DNA from: a virus
Lineage: Duplodnaviria; Heunggongvirae; Uroviricota; Caudoviricetes
Length of the DNA stretch: 64,000 nt
Direction: 5' to 3' (one strand)
Virus record (IMG/VR): IMGVR_UViG_3300049044_000033
Span: 382,796 to 446,795 of that record
Positions 7,798 through 50,429 of this stretch are shown piece by piece (within the stretch, counting starts at the first letter, position 1; the number at the start of each line of letters is the position of its first letter). The notes beneath the pieces are model-generated. The model was not told where the DNA came from. It ran no database searches and saw nothing but the letters and a program-made list of their open reading frames with translations. Both the position numbers and the translations under genes were made by a program.

Positions 7798-8365
7798 CCG
7801 CGTTACCCTCAGCATCGATGACCAGGGTGCCACGCTTTACCCTAAGCGAACCCTTGGTCTTTGGGTTATCGGGCGTCTCGCGAGTAGTGAATCCTGCCAA
7901 ACATTCCATGTGATGGACATAGTAGGTTTTACCCTTAGCCTTCACAACCCACATAGGGATGAATTCGTGTTCCATTGACTTCTTGTTGAAGTGGAAGTCG
8001 ATGTTCTTGGATTCAACTTCCAGGGGATATTCTTTGAACTGTTCCTTGATGCCCTTCTTCATATTCTTGATGTTCTGCCAATGGATCTTGGCTTCCTCGA
8101 GGACGGTCAGAAGCTTGCGAGCAGTTACCTTCTTGTAGGGATGCTCCCTCTGTTGACGCCTGAGTTCCTGAGCAATCTCAGCATAACCCTCATAAGGACC
8201 ATCTTCGTCCTGATGCTCTTCGAGTTCCTTGGATAGACTCTTGATCTTGGCTCGGCTTTGACGAATGTCCAGGCTGGCGTAAGCATAGAGCTTACGCCAT
8301 TCTGAACGCCACGCTATATAGCCCTCGTAGTCTTTGAACTGCGGCTTCATACCATGAACGCTCAT
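7787..8365 (-). CDS. Hypothetical protein (paralog of next gene plus C-terminal domain)
   Basis: AAGGAGG RBS before ATG at 8365; YIAWRSEWRKLY motif. Confidence 0.75.
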   Translation of the reverse strand: MSVHGMKPQFKDYEGYIAWRSEWRKLYAYASLDIRQSRAKIKSLSKELEEHQDEDGPYEGYAEIAQELRRQQREHPYKKVTARKLLTVLEEAKIHWQNIKNMKKGIKEQFKEYPLEVESKNIDFHFNKKSMEHEFIPMWVVKAKGKTYYVHHMECLAGFTTRETPDNPKTKGSLRVKRGTLVIDAEGNAVIR

Positions 8366-8375
8366 CTGGACCTCC

Positions 8376-8627
8376 TTACGCTTCGACGGTTGCGTTGAGC
8401 TGTTCATTCTTGAACAACTTCGCAGCTTCGAGTTGGGTCATCATGGCCGCAGCCTTGTTGCGCTTGCGCTGGAGAACGTCCTGCTGGGTTCCCTTACCGG
8501 AACGCTGCTCATCCTTGACCACAATCTTGAGGTCTCGGATTTCCTGCGAGAGAGCCTTATACTGAGTGCGCCATTCTGCACGGTAGGCCAGGTAGGTTTC
8601 ACGCGAGTTGAAGTTAAAAGTAGTCAT
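8376..8627 (-). CDS. Hypothetical coiled-coil protein
   Basis: YLAYRAEWRTQY motif. Confidence 0.75.
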   Translation of the reverse strand: MTTFNFNSRETYLAYRAEWRTQYKALSQEIRDLKIVVKDEQRSGKGTQQDVLQRKRNKAAAMMTQLEAAKLFKNEQLNATVEA

Positions 8628-8929
8628 TAGATTGATCCTCCAAAAGTCAGTTTGAAAAGTAGTGCGGTGTCATGGTTCTCAAAATACCATTTGTCACCAC
8701 CGCCATTGTGCCAAAAGCTTCCATGTTGTTCATCGCACCACGGCATCATTTCGGGAGTTTTACCCTTAACCGTTACTGTGGTGCATTCTGGCCAAGCTTC
8801 ACGAAGTCGTTTGCTCCAGTGTTTGTCTCGGGTTGAGTTGCCTACTGGCGGGCAAAATTTCATACCGCATTCTCTCCAAGCCTTGATATAGGCCTGAGTA
8901 GCGATACCTTGTGCTTCATTGAAGTCCAT
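8627..8929 (-). CDS. Hypothetical protein, LFKLxW family
   Basis: C-terminal YFENHDTALLFKLTFG. Confidence 0.75.
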   Translation of the reverse strand: MDFNEAQGIATQAYIKAWRECGMKFCPPVGNSTRDKHWSKRLREAWPECTTVTVKGKTPEMMPWCDEQHGSFWHNGGGDKWYFENHDTALLFKLTFGGSI

Positions 8930-8932
8930 CGG

Positions 8933-9391
8933 TCACTCCACTGCGCTAAAACGCTTGGTGATCTGATGTGCCTCTTCTCTGGTACAAGGACCAATACCGA
9001 GGGCAGTGACGATGGGTTGACCATCGAACGCCGTTCCAGGGATAACGTGGTTCTTGTCTTCGATGAGGGAGGTGATCAGACCCGCAGCCTCAGCTTCTTC
9101 GAACGCACGCCTGAGGGCGTTTTCGTTCTTAGCTTTGAGGATAACTTGGGTGCCGATGAAGTCTGGGCCCTGATAAACACGCAGGAGTTCAGGATCGCGC
9201 CGACTTGCTAGGAGGACACAATTCTTGGCCGCATGACAAGCCTGGCTTGCCAACTTACCTGGCTTCATATCCAGGTCGCCACGAATTATGCTATAAACGC
9301 GAAGCTTTTCAGAGGCAGCTTCGAAGGCCTCATAGTCGTTGTCGTTATCAAAACGAGCAGCGGCTTCCTACAAGAACGAGTTACTGAGCAT
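8933..9391 (-). CDS. pth2: Peptidyl-tRNA hydrolase type 2 with in-frame TAG at codon 8 (9368-9370)
   Basis: Pth2 motif RVYSIIRGDLDMKPGKLASQACHA...TALGIGP; the ORF-track start at 9268 cuts the motif; ATG at 9391 with AAGGA RBS is in frame through one TAG. Confidence 0.85.
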
Positions 9392-9431
9392 TTGCTTTCC
9401 TTTCTATTTGCGTCCAACATCGGACGTCCTC

Positions 9432-9459
9432 AACATATGACACATCTAGGATGTGTCAA
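9432..9459 (-). promoter_or_regulatory. Sigma70-like promoter for pth2, overlapped by a palindrome
   Basis: TTGACA-N16-TATGTT; TGACACATC-TAG-GATGTGTCA at 9438-9458. Confidence 0.6.
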
Positions 9460-9467
9460 CACTTTTC

Positions 9468-9800
9468 TTATCTCCACCTCAATTTAAACATCATCGCATC
9501 TCGGGGAGATTCAAAAACCACGCCAACACTATAAGAACAACCGGTTTCCCAACCTACCTTCTTCCAAACGCCGTGCTTGACATTCTCAGAACACCATTCC
9601 TCAACAGGAATAAAGGTGTTCCAAGTAAAACCTAGCATCTTTACAAGATACCAGCCTGGGAATTGGTTGTTGATGGTGGCCACGAAATCACCGTCTTCCC
9701 ATTCGTCTTCTTCGAATAGGGCAGAGTTTTCGGGTTCTTCGGAAATTTGGCCGTCATGGGAATCGAAATCATCCCACAGCCATGTTACTTCACTTGTCAT
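9468..9800 (-). CDS. Hypothetical protein, LFKLxW family
   Basis: C-terminal VFESPRDAMMFKLRWR. Confidence 0.75.
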   Translation of the reverse strand: MTSEVTWLWDDFDSHDGQISEEPENSALFEEDEWEDGDFVATINNQFPGWYLVKMLGFTWNTFIPVEEWCSENVKHGVWKKVGWETGCSYSVGVVFESPRDAMMFKLRWR

Positions 9801-9890
9801 ATAATCCTACTGTCTATTAAGCTTTGATTGCCTAACAGTGGAGGAGGGCCTCTTTGGACCTAGTGATGCTTATTCGTGTTCATGTAACTA

Positions 9891-9919
9891 CTTATAAGGC
9901 ACTAGGTCCCTAGAGTCAA
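9891..9919 (-). promoter_or_regulatory. Sigma70-like promoter
   Basis: TTGACT-N17-TATAAG. Confidence 0.65.
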
Positions 9920-9921
9920 AA

Positions 9922-10572
9922 TTAAAGTTTGCTGCCCATTCGAGCATAAATCCAGTTCTTTTCCTCAGTGGTAATATCGAACTTCACGTTGGGATATTTT
10001 GCCTGGATCTTGCTAACGATCTGCTTTATCTGCTGACCGCTCTCATGAGTCAAAACCTGCCAGTCGTAATCTTCTTCATCTTCTTCACCTTCGGGATTCT
10101 CCCATGAACCCCAATCTCGAACTTCGAATGAATCAGATGATGAACGAAACTCTGAATACCTATTCGCAGTCTGTTTGAACGCTGACAATAGTTCAGAAGT
10201 TGCCTTGGAAATTTCTTCCGGAGTAGCTTTAGCAGTAGGCTCACCTGCACGAACCGGTTCTTCTTGCTTATTAGCAGATGTGCCTTTAGGCTTTTCAGCA
10301 ACCTTGCCGAAGCCATAAGTGACTGCACCACGACCCGCAACGTTACTAGCATCGGTGGTTTCCCACATGCCAACAACATTACCCTGTTGATCAATGATGT
10401 GGTAGACCCCAAGAGTAAAGCCCATCTTGGAACCCTTACTTTGAACTAGCTTGGATTCATGGTCTGATTCACCCCAAACACTATATATGGCTTTCTTCAA
10501 GCTTGGGCGATCAGTATAGGTTGCGTTAATGAACTTTGGTTCATTCGCCTCGAAAATTTCATGAGCTCGCAT
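9922..10572 (-). CDS. Hypothetical late protein, possibly an internal head protein
   Basis: AGGAG RBS; TAAATA upstream; MRAHEIFEA N-terminus. Confidence 0.7.
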   Translation of the reverse strand: MRAHEIFEANEPKFINATYTDRPSLKKAIYSVWGESDHESKLVQSKGSKMGFTLGVYHIIDQQGNVVGMWETTDASNVAGRGAVTYGFGKVAEKPKGTSANKQEEPVRAGEPTAKATPEEISKATSELLSAFKQTANRYSEFRSSSDSFEVRDWGSWENPEGEEDEEDYDWQVLTHESGQQIKQIVSKIQAKYPNVKFDITTEEKNWIYARMGSKL

Positions 10573-10596
10573 ATTAGGCTCCTTTCTCTGGCCTAT

Positions 10597-11040
10597 TTAT
10601 TCAAGCAATCCACGGTCAAAGCATTCATTCAAAACGCCTCGATAAACGCGCATATTTGGCCGATAGGGACCGCGCCCGAAATACTTTGCGTCGTCCCCGT
10701 TAAGGGCCTTCTCAAGCGCCGCAGCAACCGCCGCGCTCCGACATTGCCCCATAAGACAATGAACGTATATGACGCTCGTTCCCGCTTTATTCATGTCTTC
10801 ATAGAAGTCCAAAATAGTCTTCGCATGGGAATCGTCAAACAAGATTCGAGTCTCATTCTCCGGCTCGCCGTTCTTGTATGCATCAATATCGTGGAACTTG
10901 AGATTGAGACGACCCTGAAGGAATTCATTCTCATGAACCTCAGGGAAGTCACCTTTCTCACAGATGCTGATCAGCGCCCAAGGCTTCTCTGGTGGATTAG
11001 CGGCCATCATAGTGGCCCGGCTATAGACTACAAACTTCAT
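10597..11040 (-). CDS. Protein-tyrosine/dual-specificity phosphatase-like protein
   Basis: CX5R motif HCLMGQCRS; FHDID; PN-x-x-V; likely start MKFVVYSR. Confidence 0.85.
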   Translation of the reverse strand: MKFVVYSRATMMAANPPEKPWALISICEKGDFPEVHENEFLQGRLNLKFHDIDAYKNGEPENETRILFDDSHAKTILDFYEDMNKAGTSVIYVHCLMGQCRSAAVAAALEKALNGDDAKYFGRGPYRPNMRVYRGVLNECFDRGLLE

Positions 11041-11071
11041 ATCCAGAGCTTTACTGGTTATTAGGCCTGTG

Positions 11072-11887
11072 TCAAGCTTCGGACCAAATATCCAGGGCAA
11101 GATCTTCGCGTTGCGCTTGCTGCCAGTTATAGACGCAACGGTCAAGACCAAGGGCAATTTCGAGCACAAGTGCGTCTTTCTCGATTAGACCTTTCTTGCC
11201 CTGGAAGCGAAGCTTCTCGGGGAAATCAGTCCGCTTGCTGATGCTGCAGACTTCCATCCACTTGTCGCCATTGTAGACTTCAACGTCCATCGTGCGAAGT
11301 GAATAAGCGGGAAGGCGGTCTGACTCTACTAGACGAGTGGGCAGGTGAACCATGCTAGCAATCATCTTGCGAACCGGTTCAAGCATTGCTTCCTGATAAT
11401 CATCAGCGGTATCTGCACTGTAGACGCACTGGAATTCCTGCTGGTAGAACTCCTTAAGGCGCATGTGCTTCGTGGGCTGCACGATTTCCCGACGGAAGCT
11501 CTTGCCCGCCTGCCAAACCACGAAGGGCGGCTGAACGCCCGTATGACTATTGAGCAGGTATTGCGCGTAGGAGTAGCTGCCAGGTGTGGTCTCAGGACGC
11601 AGGGCGAGGGCACGAGGAGCAGGACGAGTGCCAGCTTGGATCTCTGTCAGTTCTTCCAACGGCACAACAGAGTTCTGTTCCCAGATATCCTGACCGGTAT
11701 AGTTGACGTTCAGAAGATCTCGCGGTGTAAGCAGCGGTGCTTCGATGAAGTGGAAAGCCCAACGAGGATTGATAGCCAGCAATTGGCTTTGAACCTCACG
11801 AGCAAAGAAATCCCGGAAGGTTTCACGAAGCCTGATCTCCTGCTCATTCCAAAAGACCAAGCCATTAATTTCGTAGGGATTCTGCAT
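11072..11887 (-). CDS. Class II aminoacyl-tRNA synthetase catalytic domain, alpha2-GlyRS-like, without anticodon-binding domain
   Basis: LRPETT; motif 2 QAGKSFRRE...RLKEFYQQEFQ; WMEVCSISKRTDF; motif 3 LEIALGLDR; only 271 aa. Confidence 0.85.
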   Translation of the reverse strand: MQNPYEINGLVFWNEQEIRLRETFRDFFAREVQSQLLAINPRWAFHFIEAPLLTPRDLLNVNYTGQDIWEQNSVVPLEELTEIQAGTRPAPRALALRPETTPGSYSYAQYLLNSHTGVQPPFVVWQAGKSFRREIVQPTKHMRLKEFYQQEFQCVYSADTADDYQEAMLEPVRKMIASMVHLPTRLVESDRLPAYSLRTMDVEVYNGDKWMEVCSISKRTDFPEKLRFQGKKGLIEKDALVLEIALGLDRCVYNWQQAQREDLALDIWSEA

Positions 11888-12024
11888 CAGACATAGCCTT
11901 TAAGCAATGAGGTGAAAAGAAGAGACAACATGGCAACTACAAAGAGCAGGAAGAGTGCTCCGGCCCAAGGAAGACCTTTAGTTTCAGTTCTTAACTTAGG
12001 CGGTTCAGGTCTTTCGGGCATCAT
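11887..12024 (-). CDS. 45-aa single-TM peptide
   Basis: MMPERPEPPKLRTETKGLPWAGALFLLFVVAMLSLLFTSLLKGYV; its TGA overlaps the ATG of the aaRS-like gene. Confidence 0.6.
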   Translation of the reverse strand: MMPERPEPPKLRTETKGLPWAGALFLLFVVAMLSLLFTSLLKGYV

Positions 12025-12037
12025 GTTTTCTCGTATT

Positions 12038-12113
12038 TGGCGCGCCTAGCGAGGCTCGAACTCGCGACCCGCAGATTTAGAGTCTGCTGCTCTACCAACT
12101 GAGCTATAAGCGC
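12038..12113 (-). tRNA. Amber suppressor tRNA (anticodon CUA)
   Basis: GCGCTTA-TAGCTCAGTTGGTAGAGCA-GCAGA-CTCTAAA-TCTGC-GGGTC-GCGAG-TTCGAGC-CTCGC-TAGGCGC-G-CCA: full 76-nt cloverleaf with encoded CCA. Confidence 0.95.
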
Positions 12114-12124
12114 ATTCAACCTTT

Positions 12125-12583
12125 TTAGGACTTATTTTCCAGCTTGTCAAGTCGCTCGACGATTTGACGAAGCAATTCTGTTTGCTCCCGATCGTTTTCT
12201 TTGAGGTGTTCCTGCTCTTCATGTGTGAAGGCGTCGCTGTTAACGATCAGCTGAGCAGAGAACTTGGCGACCAGAAGTGGCTGGATATAGAATACACTGA
12301 AGAACATAAATGCCCCGCCAACGAGCTTGCTGATCAACTTTGTGGGATAGAGGTCACCATATCCAACAGTAGTCGAGGTAACAGTTGCCCACCAGAAGCT
12401 ATTGGTGAGGTCCTTGTCTTCAACAATACTGAAGGTCACTGCCGCGACGGTCATAGCAGAGATAAAGGTTAGAATGAGCGGGAGGGCTTTATTGGCCATC
12501 TTCTGTATGAAGTTAAGTTCCTGGCCTGCCCCTGCAGCGGCCTTTAGAAAGTCGTTACCTGCCCGTTCGATCTGTTTACGCAT
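12125..12583 (-). CDS. KcsA-like two-TM potassium channel
   Basis: SFWWATVTSTTVGYGDLYP filter between two TM helices; AAGGAGG RBS. Confidence 0.92.
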   Translation of the reverse strand: MRKQIERAGNDFLKAAAGAGQELNFIQKMANKALPLILTFISAMTVAAVTFSIVEDKDLTNSFWWATVTSTTVGYGDLYPTKLISKLVGGAFMFFSVFYIQPLLVAKFSAQLIVNSDAFTHEEQEHLKENDREQTELLRQIVERLDKLENKS

Positions 12584-12603
12584 GAATGTTCCTCCTTGCA
12601 CTC

Positions 12604-12631
12604 TCGATAACACAGGAGAACAATTTGTCAA
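12604..12631 (-). promoter_or_regulatory. Sigma70-like promoter heading the channel-tRNA-aaRS operon
   Basis: TTGACA at 12626-12631 with TATCGA 16 nt downstream; preceded by a hairpin at 12636-12661. Confidence 0.5.
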
Positions 12632-12681
12632 GCGAATAGGTGCTAGTTTCCTAGCACCTATCTCTCTAAGCTACTTCGCTA

Positions 12682-13290
12682 TTAGGAGAGTTCGCTATAC
12701 TTGCTTGCCATGCGATCCGACATCGCCTGGAGCATACCGGAGATGTTCCGATAAATCGTCGCAAACACACGGCTGAGGAAATCACCGAAGAACGTGCCGA
12801 CGATTGAGAACGGCCAATAAACCATCCAGGTCGTGATACGAGCCTTGTTATTGCGGGCCATACGCTTTACCTGAATGTTCAGGACCTGGACTTCTCGAAC
12901 GTTATTGAACCGGTCACGAACCGTTGGATCTGCTGGAAAATCCTTGAGCGTTTCGCCATTCGGACCAGCAGTTTTGAGGAACTTGGTCCGAATCATATCG
13001 TAGCTCTTAAACAAATCAGGCAAGAAGAAAACTCGCCACTTGATTGTAGCCCAGATTCCGGCCATGCCTAGATAACCTAACAGCCCGTAGACTACATAGA
13101 TTGGGTGAGCCTTGACCGTGGCAACAATCGGGAGATTGCTGAATAGGACGAGGATCAGGACACTTATAAGGAAGGTGAGAGTTGCCTGACCGGCCTTATC
13201 CTGGCTAACCTGAGACGAGAGGATGAGAGTAACGAGGCCGAGGAAGGTCCAAAACAGGATGCCCCCGACGACAAGAAAACTAAAAAGCAT
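12682..13290 (-). CDS. Multi-pass membrane protein
   Basis: 3-4 hydrophobic segments; likely start MLFSF. Confidence 0.75.
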   Translation of the reverse strand: MLFSFLVVGGILFWTFLGLVTLILSSQVSQDKAGQATLTFLISVLILVLFSNLPIVATVKAHPIYVVYGLLGYLGMAGIWATIKWRVFFLPDLFKSYDMIRTKFLKTAGPNGETLKDFPADPTVRDRFNNVREVQVLNIQVKRMARNNKARITTWMVYWPFSIVGTFFGDFLSRVFATIYRNISGMLQAMSDRMASKYSELS

Positions 13291-13291
13291 T

Positions 13292-14635
13292 TTACGCCTT
13301 CTTCCATTCTGTGCCGTGGATTCCATCGGCAAGTGTGATACCAGCGTCTGCAAGTTGCTGGCGAATTTCATCTGCTCGTGCGTAGTCTTTGTTCCTACGC
13401 GCTGCTTGACGTTCGCTTATTAGTTGTTCAACCCACTCTTTGTCAACACCAAAGGTGCGCCATTGGTGAGGAGTTTGGTTAAACAATCCGAGAAGCTGCC
13501 CACCCCTAATAAACTTTGCCTTCGCTGGCGCCCCTCCGCCATGCTCAAGATCATCAGCTAACTCATGCAGAGCAGAGAGTGCAGCCGTGGTATTGAGGTC
13601 GTTGGATAGAGCTTCTAAGACATTCTCTGGTGCATCAACGGCTTCTGGGTAGTTGAGTTCGTCGAACCTCCACAAGACATTATAGAGACGATCTAGCGCA
13701 CGATGAGCACTAGCAAGCTTCTCCATAGTAAAGTCCATAGGACTGCGATAGTGTGATTGCAGGAAGAGATAGCGAACCGATTCGCCAGGATATTGGTCCA
13801 ATAGGTCTCGGAGCAAAATCACGTTGCCTCGACTCTTGCTCATCTTCTCACTGCCTACAGTCAAGAGACCATTGTGGAGCCAATATTTGGCCAGAGGTTG
13901 ACCAGTCACGCACTGACTTTGGGCACATTCTGCATCGTGGTGTGGGAACCTGAGATCCTGTCCACCTCCATGAATATCAATAGTAGATCCACCATAAAGG
14001 CTGTAGATCATAGCTGAACATTCAATGTGCCATCCGGGACGTCCGTGACCCCAAGGTGAAAACCATTTAGGCTCTCCTTCCTTAGCGGGCTTCCAGAGAA
14101 CAAAGTCCCTTGGATCCTTTTTCTTTGGATTCACCTCCACCCGAGCGCCACTATTCCAATGAGTATGGTTAGCCAGACCAGGATGAGGATTACTGGGAAC
14201 GTGGAAGAACACCTCTCCGTCGACTTCATAAGCGTGACCATCGTCTATGAGTTTATGGATGAGAATGATCATACTCGAGACATAATCCGTGGCTTTAGGC
14301 TCCATGTAGGGAGACAAGCAGCACAAATCTTCGAGATCCTGATGATAAGCAATCGTTGCAGTATCAGTGATCTGACTGATCGGTACACCTCGCTCAATCG
14401 AGGCAGTAATAATCTTATCATCAATATCAGTGATATTGCGGGCGTATCGAACCGACTCAGGATAGGTGTATTCGAGAAGCCTATAAAGCTGGTCAAACAC
14501 GATAGCCGGACGAGCATTCCCTATGTGGGCTGGACCATACACAGTTGGTCCGCAGACATACATTGTGATAAGACGATCATCACGAGGGATGAACTCTTCA
14601 AGGCTTCGTGTCTGACTATTGTGTAGCTTGATCAT
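13292..14635 (-). CDS. cysS: Cysteinyl-tRNA synthetase
   Basis: MYVCGPTVY, HIGN, DFVLWK, GRPGWHIECS, DIHGGG, KMSKS and DALR-type C-terminus. Confidence 0.97.
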   Translation of the reverse strand: MIKLHNSQTRSLEEFIPRDDRLITMYVCGPTVYGPAHIGNARPAIVFDQLYRLLEYTYPESVRYARNITDIDDKIITASIERGVPISQITDTATIAYHQDLEDLCCLSPYMEPKATDYVSSMIILIHKLIDDGHAYEVDGEVFFHVPSNPHPGLANHTHWNSGARVEVNPKKKDPRDFVLWKPAKEGEPKWFSPWGHGRPGWHIECSAMIYSLYGGSTIDIHGGGQDLRFPHHDAECAQSQCVTGQPLAKYWLHNGLLTVGSEKMSKSRGNVILLRDLLDQYPGESVRYLFLQSHYRSPMDFTMEKLASAHRALDRLYNVLWRFDELNYPEAVDAPENVLEALSNDLNTTAALSALHELADDLEHGGGAPAKAKFIRGGQLLGLFNQTPHQWRTFGVDKEWVEQLISERQAARRNKDYARADEIRQQLADAGITLADGIHGTEWKKA

Positions 14636-50027: not shown

Positions 50028-50429
50028 CTATTCAGCTGTCAAGCGAATTAGCTCAGTTCGGATGGTTTCCATGGGGAGATATTTGTGGAGGCTTTTTAGG
50101 AGGATTCGGCGATACCAGAAGTTCCATTCCTTAGCATCAGCTATTAGAGCAGCTTGCTCGACTGCTTCGTCAGCCGCTTGCCCTTGTAGGTTACCACTAG
50201 CTAGTTGCATCGCAAGAGCAAAGAAGTCTCGGAAAGATAGACTGCCTGGTTCTTCATCCTCTAAGTCAAGAGCTGGAACACTGGATAGATTAAATTGCTG
50301 GTCGGGAGAAGTAGCTAGATCCAAACCGATCCAGAAGTCCTCACAATCAAGTTCCCAGGCTTGTTGGAGGACTTCTTTATGATCAGCATTTGGGTCCATG
50401 AGACTAACAATGATATCTAAGGGTCTCAC
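50028..50429 (-). CDS. Stand-alone N-terminal DNA-binding domain resembling phage ATP-dependent DNA ligases
   Basis: LASGNLQGQAADEAV...EWNFWYRRILLKSL resembles the LTG.AA...W..WYRRIL.KDL segment of such ligases; ends in TAG. Confidence 0.6.
   Translation of the reverse strand: MRPLDIIVSLMDPNADHKEVLQQAWELDCEDFWIGLDLATSPDQQFNLSSVPALDLEDEEPGSLSFRDFFALAMQLASGNLQGQAADEAVEQAALIADAKEWNFWYRRILLKSLHKYLPMETIRTELIRLTAE

Follow-up and report, generated by a model that had tools for sequence, protein, structure and literature searches.

The pth2 gene of the analysed phage is, with high probability, under the lock of a codon readable only by a tRNA that the same genetic element encodes, and it would be opened when the phage's charged CUA tRNA outcompetes release factor 1. 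Comparative genomics revealed both the lock (the stop and its frame) and the key (a matching tRNA with a single apparent target). The readthrough itself, the inserted amino acid and the input signal are inferred.

The studied DNA (the window, 64,000 nucleotides) corresponds to positions 382796-446795 of a complete phage genome of 462,455 bp. Its source is a standard-code jumbo phage (~462 kb) with 62 tRNA genes, three of which have a CUA anticodon. Judged by pth2, its nearest cultured relatives are Sinorhizobium phage Phosso and Agrobacterium phage Atu_ph07. The relevant features of the window, all on the minus strand, are as follows:

9432..9459, minus strand: predicted sigma70-type promoter TTGACA-16 nt-TATGTT (10/12 match)
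9411..9426, minus strand: small 5′ hairpin, kept in close relatives and, at such length, unique in the genome
9398..9402, minus strand: Shine-Dalgarno sequence AAGGA, 6 nt before the ATG at 9391; SD-like in relatives
9371..9391, minus strand: 7-codon leader MLSNSFL, the putative true N-terminus
9368..9370, minus strand: in-frame TAG (the gate) at codon 8, next base G; conserved in relatives
8933..9367, minus strand: Pth2-fold coding region past the gate, 144 aa, ending with TGA at 8935-8933
11072..11887, minus strand: minimal class II (GlyRS-like) synthetase core without an anticodon-binding domain, a neighbour in this phage group only
12038..12113, minus strand: tRNA with a CUA anticodon, G73, a short variable loop and an encoded CCA, the candidate key, ~2.7 kb from pth2

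The original prediction placed a promoter and an AAGGA motif before the ATG at 9391, with MLSNSFL running into the TAG, and this arrangement was confirmed on the minus strand. The promoter (9459-9432) is the best site in 8300-12800, a region with 5 sites against 4.4 expected by chance, and its -35 box is identical and in the same place in most close relatives. Overlapping it is a 9-bp inverted repeat (9438-9458) that is unique in the genome but poorly kept, most relatives not conserving it; it is a possible operator or terminator. From the TAG (9370-9368) the frame stays open to the TGA (8935-8933) and, as predicted, no in-frame ATG, GTG or TTG was found between the TAG and Met at 9268. Neither did we find a stable, readthrough-stimulating structure 3′ of the TAG (z 0.53).

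The TAG proved to be invariant in 11 out of 11 close relatives (76–97% nucleotide identity). Codon changes in these relatives are mostly synonymous both in the leader (8 synonymous, 3 nonsynonymous) and between the TAG and Met (29 and 16, respectively). Because the TAG is conserved while its flanks change in this manner, a sequencing error or a private nonsense mutation, which the original prediction had named as a possible refutation, is excluded. Genome-wide recoding of TAG (code 15) would be favoured by the three CUA tRNAs in the genome. However, coding density is 0.831 with TAG read as sense and 0.832 with TGA read as sense, so there is no TAG-specific gain, and 23 of the 452 modelled genes (~5%) still stop at TAG. 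Code-15 phages combine many genes carrying an in-frame TAG with a TAG-specific gain in density, and we found neither here. We therefore consider code 15, as well as an error or a pseudogene, extremely improbable.

The product of the post-TAG frame has a Pth2 fold. The Pfam PTH2 profile (PF01981) matches its residues 24-141 (E 1.6e-20, 73.9 bits, cut-off 23), and since Met 9268 is residue 34, the match begins 10 residues upstream of it. In the AlphaFold model (pLDDT 90.8), beta-1 comprises residues 23-29 (~9301-9281), which bears out the claim that the first Pth2 strand lies upstream of this Met. Foldseek aligned the model to solved Pth2s (1q7s, 1wn2, 2zv3, 3erj, 1xty) with E 1.7e-9 and a target TM of 0.84–0.91. 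K38 (the lysine of the G-K motif), H45 and D104 are kept, and we take K38 and D104 to be the catalytic Lys and Asp (Lys18 and Asp86 in S. solfataricus). The D-x-G-x-T loop, on the other hand, is replaced by D-x-x-H-V/I-x-P in gated proteins. Its threonine, presumably Thr90 of the proposed Pth2 catalytic triad, is present in 28 of 28 canonical ungated rows and in the five PDB alignments shown, whereas it is missing throughout the gated clade with the exception of the outlier L064. Gated proteins form a separate Pth2 branch (support 96/91). A second Pth2-like gene with the canonical D-x-G-x-T occurs in this genome (~118,300, minus strand), in the gp680 region of Atu_ph07 and in Phosso (~17,800), and it is apparently ungated in all three. 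Thus, compared with canonical Pth2, which has the same fold, G-K lysine, His and Asp, the gated protein differs in its loop, its own subfamily, its N-terminal gate and the ungated paralogue in the same genome. Due to the lost threonine and the paralogue, we describe it as a Pth2-fold protein and not as a proven peptidyl-tRNA hydrolase.

It could also be argued that no readthrough takes place, that translation from Met 9268 yields the genuine product, a 111-aa protein, and that the minigene is a mere leader. This shorter form is the one given in GenBank and in most gene calls, and AlphaFold folds it confidently, but model confidence fails to discriminate between the two (pLDDT 90 for the 111-aa form and 90.8 for the full one). 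The sequence upstream of the Met is conserved and shows purifying selection, and Met 9268 itself is a conserved internal Pth2 residue without an SD sequence. Loss of the upstream part reduces the modelled sheet from four strands to two, which is suggestive, and codon-anticodon covariation (described below) would be left unexplained. This makes the short product very improbable.

The early stop is also found beyond close relatives. An ATG followed by 2–7 codons and an in-frame stop opens 37 distinct phage homologues (down to ~40% identity); the stop is TAG in 34 and TGA in 3, and as the loci are related, such counts do not represent independent events. The gate lies 7–41 codons upstream of beta-1 and the leaders are mutually unrelated, therefore the stop tracks the start codon rather than a position in the protein. 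In Phosso the leader reads M-K-Y-stop, and in Atu_ph07 gp256 a TGA at codon 7 matches the UCA tRNA of that phage. The last sense codon ahead of the gate is not conserved. The base 3′ of the stop (n=37) is G in 22 cases, A in 11, C in 4 and T in none, whereas T follows 26 of 125 ordinary TAG stops, although the gated loci are not independent. Amber suppression is favoured by a purine or CUG 3′ context, and the absence of T after gates agrees with the established influence of context on amber suppression.

Four loci (L055, L060, L062 and L078) have two TAG gates, which would steepen the response. At L055 the CUA tRNA gene (2897-2971) sits within the pth2 frame, between the two TAG codons. Because the gene is inside the reading frame, excision of this tRNA would destroy the pth2 message. 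TAG-gate leaders of L059 and L267 are longer (14–21 codons) and cysteine-rich. An ungated Variovorax/Achromobacter branch is nested within the gated subfamily. Most database homologues are called from an internal Met (105–111 aa), and all five checked full-length entries that span the gate are either translations with TAG=Q or start past the gate.

The candidate key (12038-12113) is a canonical tRNA of 76 nt, syntenic in relatives and in Phosso. Two further CUA tRNAs of this genome (153582-153658 and 185829-185902 in genome coordinates) have A73 and different acceptor stems, and the first one has its own promoter-like site; we found no target for these two. The original prediction held that full-length Pth2 needs UAG readthrough, plausibly by the CUA tRNA ~2.7 kb away. 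The need for readthrough is supported, and covariation of gate and anticodon makes a phage CUA tRNA the likely key; of the three CUA tRNAs in the genome, the 12038 copy is the syntenic candidate.

A CUA tRNA is present in ~30 TAG-gated records, mostly within a few kb of pth2, often within 100–300 nt and often just upstream of the leader. A UCA tRNA is present in all three TGA-gated phages (Atu_ph07, G001 and G002), ~4.3 kb from pth2 in both G001 and G002, and TGA gates have two separate origins in the tree. Whole-genome tRNA scans found CUA but no UCA in this phage, Phosso, G033 and G034; Atu_ph07 showed the opposite, with UCA as its only suppressor (PMC6102473) and no CUA. The CUA search pattern also picks up tRNA-Arg(UCU), and every match was verified by ARAGORN. 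A narrow pattern returned no CUA tRNA in the complete TAG-gated genome G009, and none was found in several fragments either. Xoo-sp13 (L194, 36.8 kb) has a CUA tRNA, yet its only detected Pth2 is intact and canonical. The discriminator base is G in 21 tRNAs, A in 19 and U in 4. Acceptor stems vary freely even between close relatives, among which G73 and the loop are kept. In several relatives the tRNA and pth2 are on one transcript. Pyrrolysine or selenocysteine decoding, which relies on tRNA-Pyl with PylRS or on tRNA-Sec with SelB and SECIS and places the residue at a fixed functional site, does not fit the features of tRNA and gate: the tRNA is a canonical 76-mer, the stop occupies variable sites in an unconserved N-terminal tail and no stable structure follows it.

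A genome-wide codon-model scan for an RBS, an ATG, a short leader, a stop and a startless coding frame returned pth2 alone in this genome and in Phosso under strict settings. Under loose settings it was the sole convincing case in Atu_ph07 and G033 as well; the scan is not exhaustive, since it missed the gate of G034. It replaced a six-frame BLAST (Phosso, Atu_ph07, part of G022) that was swamped by antisense shadows. Further candidate gates at TAG junctions (330109 and 123024 in the genome, 50030 in the window) were rejected: each has a downstream ATG, and the matches in relatives, where found, are split. At window 50028-50030 two TAGs precede ligA, a gene with an SD and an ATG of its own; both parts of this junction match separately in Phosso and Atu_ph07.

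In megaplasmid and marine homologues of the same subfamily, a short leader is followed by a four-base word, where a +1 shift leads into the domain. A tRNA lies directly upstream, and its bases 34–37 are the reverse complement of the gate word:

TAGC gate, GCUA tRNA: six loci, including pMPPla107; the Vibrio call is weak
TGAC gate, GUCA tRNA: pBASL58
CATT gate, AAUG tRNA: two Bosea plasmids
CGAT gate, AUCG tRNA: a marine element

These upstream tRNAs (L075, L076, L268-L273, L276 and L263-L266, from Pseudomonas, Bosea and Vibrio megaplasmids and marine contigs) are odd, many of them having 9-nt or mismatched anticodon loops, and those that match four-base gates are candidate natural quadruplet decoders. 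No tRNA was found within 1.2 kb of the TAGC gates of L073 and L274, and no matching one in the fetched flanks of L042 (2940-2970, TAGG, +1). Right after the gate, an S-C-x-R stretch is conserved in the shifted frame of L073, L075, L076, L268-L271, L274 and L276; it may be an RNA signal or a nascent peptide. With six codon-anticodon pairings within one gene family, a tRNA-dependent gate is the only economical reading.

According to the proposed mechanism, ribosomes would start at ATG 9391 and reach codon 8, where termination would yield a cheap 8-codon minigene. Where the charged phage CUA tRNA beats release factor 1, an amino acid would be inserted and the 152-aa Pth2-fold protein made. Because the tRNA looks dedicated, with apparently one target, enzyme output would mirror how much charged key tRNA is available relative to release factor. 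TGA terminates a third of all Atu_ph07 genes, so suppression can only be weak or conditional. The idea that minigene drop-off supplies the Pth substrate is consistent with the leader length of 2–7 codons but found no other support, and conservation does not extend to the last sense codon. Recycling of the suppressor tRNA by Pth would constitute a positive rather than a corrective feedback.

As for the input of the gate, we see the charging or availability of the key tRNA as a serious possibility that falls short of probable, a shortage of release factor as rather doubtful, a fixed low dose or timing as unlikely and anything else as having a slim chance. The drifting anticodon, acceptor stem and discriminator suit a tRNA whose charging state would be the signal. 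Alternatively, the gate might be a prfB-like sensor of release factors: the tRNA, charged at all times, would do no more than set the gain, and the output would rise upon a shortage or block of RF1 or RF2. A stop codon lies within or next to every gate word, CAU-UGA and CGA-UAA among them, and a hydrolase would be useful when termination fails. Gates drift, however, among stops read by RF1, RF2 or both factors, and we found no RF-1-family gene (nor a Pth1 gene) in this genome. Freely drifting acceptor stems are also unexpected if one host enzyme must charge the tRNA steadily, yet G73 and the loop are kept. On balance, release-factor sensing is conceivable, though doubtful. The original prediction tied the switch to suppressor charging or RF1 activity; its switch-like character is supported by double TAG gates and the shared transcript, but specificity for RF1 is not, since gates move to UGA (RF2), CAU-UGA and CGA-UAA.

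Weak suppression might instead serve as a fixed dose limiter or timer that holds a harmful enzyme low or late. An early stop is cheap, suppression must indeed be weak and the separate Pth2-like gene could cover housekeeping; in work by Fromant from 2003, archaeal Pth2 is said to be able to cleave formyl-Met initiator tRNA. A weak RBS would suffice for such a purpose without any tRNA, and double gates argue against it. Neither can the timing of transcription separate the tRNA from pth2, because one transcript carries both in several relatives. We consider such a limiter unlikely; a post-transcriptional switch accords better than plain dosing with the shared transcripts and the double gates. Still less probable is a three-part orthogonal system, in which charging of the CUA tRNA by the GlyRS-like enzyme would control pth2. 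Its gene adjoins the tRNA in 7 close relatives and Phosso, and the enzyme has no anticodon-binding domain. Against this, no more than 11 of 45 records contain the gene (among complete viral records, 6 of 14), searches of Atu_ph07, G002, G003, G033 and G034 did not find it, and 24 of 31 GlyRS-like loci have neither a suppressor tRNA nor pth2 in the fetched flanks (up to 6 kb). As the synthetase does not always travel with the tRNA, an orthogonal aaRS-tRNA pair was rejected; the enzyme may charge the CUA tRNA in this lineage, but its gene, judged by this distribution, is not a core part of the pth2 system. The GlyRS-like core belongs to a large family (1367 matches), often found amid phage tRNA clusters. 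Nearby, the CUA tRNA is immediately preceded by a potassium-channel-like gene (window 12125-12631), and a full CysRS gene is at 13292-14635; L260 shows the same order.

The gate is real and conserved, its lock mechanism is well supported by sequence comparison, and it is unlike any natural system that we can name. RF2 (prfB) is autoregulated at an early in-frame UGA, where a host tRNA slips +1 with the help of an internal SD. Both cases have an early in-frame stop conserved across the family, a gene of translation rescue or termination and release-factor competition. Here, in contrast, a dedicated co-encoded tRNA is used whose anticodon tracks the gate, the phage frame is continuous and the codon before the stop varies, which rules out a prfB-type +1 slip on a conserved slippery codon. 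In Streptomyces, bldA tRNA-Leu(UUA) reads a sense codon in many genes; expression depends on one special tRNA in both systems, but the bldA codon is a sense one and has many targets. Stop-recoded code-15 phages also encode suppressor tRNAs (PMC9523058, PMC13037316), so that in both cases a phage CUA tRNA serves a phage UAG; there TAG occurs in many genes, whereas here it is apparently one codon in one gene. A recoding survey links suppressor tRNAs to genome-wide recoding (PMC13037316). Suppressor tRNAs were reported in XacN1, whose target genes could not be identified (PMC5852040), and in Atu_ph07, with no target named (PMC6102473). Like our phage, both combine such a tRNA with a peptidyl-tRNA hydrolase gene under the standard code, XacN1 according to its published description. 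Suppressor-tRNA logic gates (PMC7969014, PMC11669171) and quadruplet tRNAs, sufD/SufB2-type or engineered (PMC8481270), are engineered or laboratory mutants, in contrast to the natural conserved pairs described here. In the literature searched, mostly papers outside subscription journals, we found no description of the pth2 gate.

Pth can reverse tRNA-acetylating toxins (PMC9241777), and Pth2 of jumbo phages has been interpreted as a ribosome rescue factor (PMC7824862). By analogy with these reports, translation conflict seems the likeliest use of gated Pth2. Altered specificity is plausible, and the product is probably a tRNA deacylase of this kind, made during host translation conflict. More tentatively, and with considerable doubt, we propose that large phages and megaplasmids carry a natural one-codon, one-tRNA sensor circuit. 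In it, an orphan tRNA that reads an amber, an opal or a four-base codon would gain its function solely under an attack on, or a disturbance of, host translation, and would then turn on a Pth2-fold deacylase with a new specificity that counters the attack. If true, such a circuit would account for the orphan suppressor tRNAs of phages and be a source of natural quadruplet decoders.

The pth2 gate provides a concrete candidate target for an orphan suppressor tRNA in phages that are available in culture (Phosso on S. meliloti, and Atu_ph07). It also corrects the annotation of Atu_ph07 gp256 and Phosso gp267, both of which are truncated. If the gate is indeed a switch, it would be a natural counterpart to engineered suppressor-tRNA logic gates, and its megaplasmid members may offer natural four-base decoders for genetic-code expansion. 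Finally, the Pth2 subfamily with the remodelled active-site loop is a candidate counter-defence enzyme.
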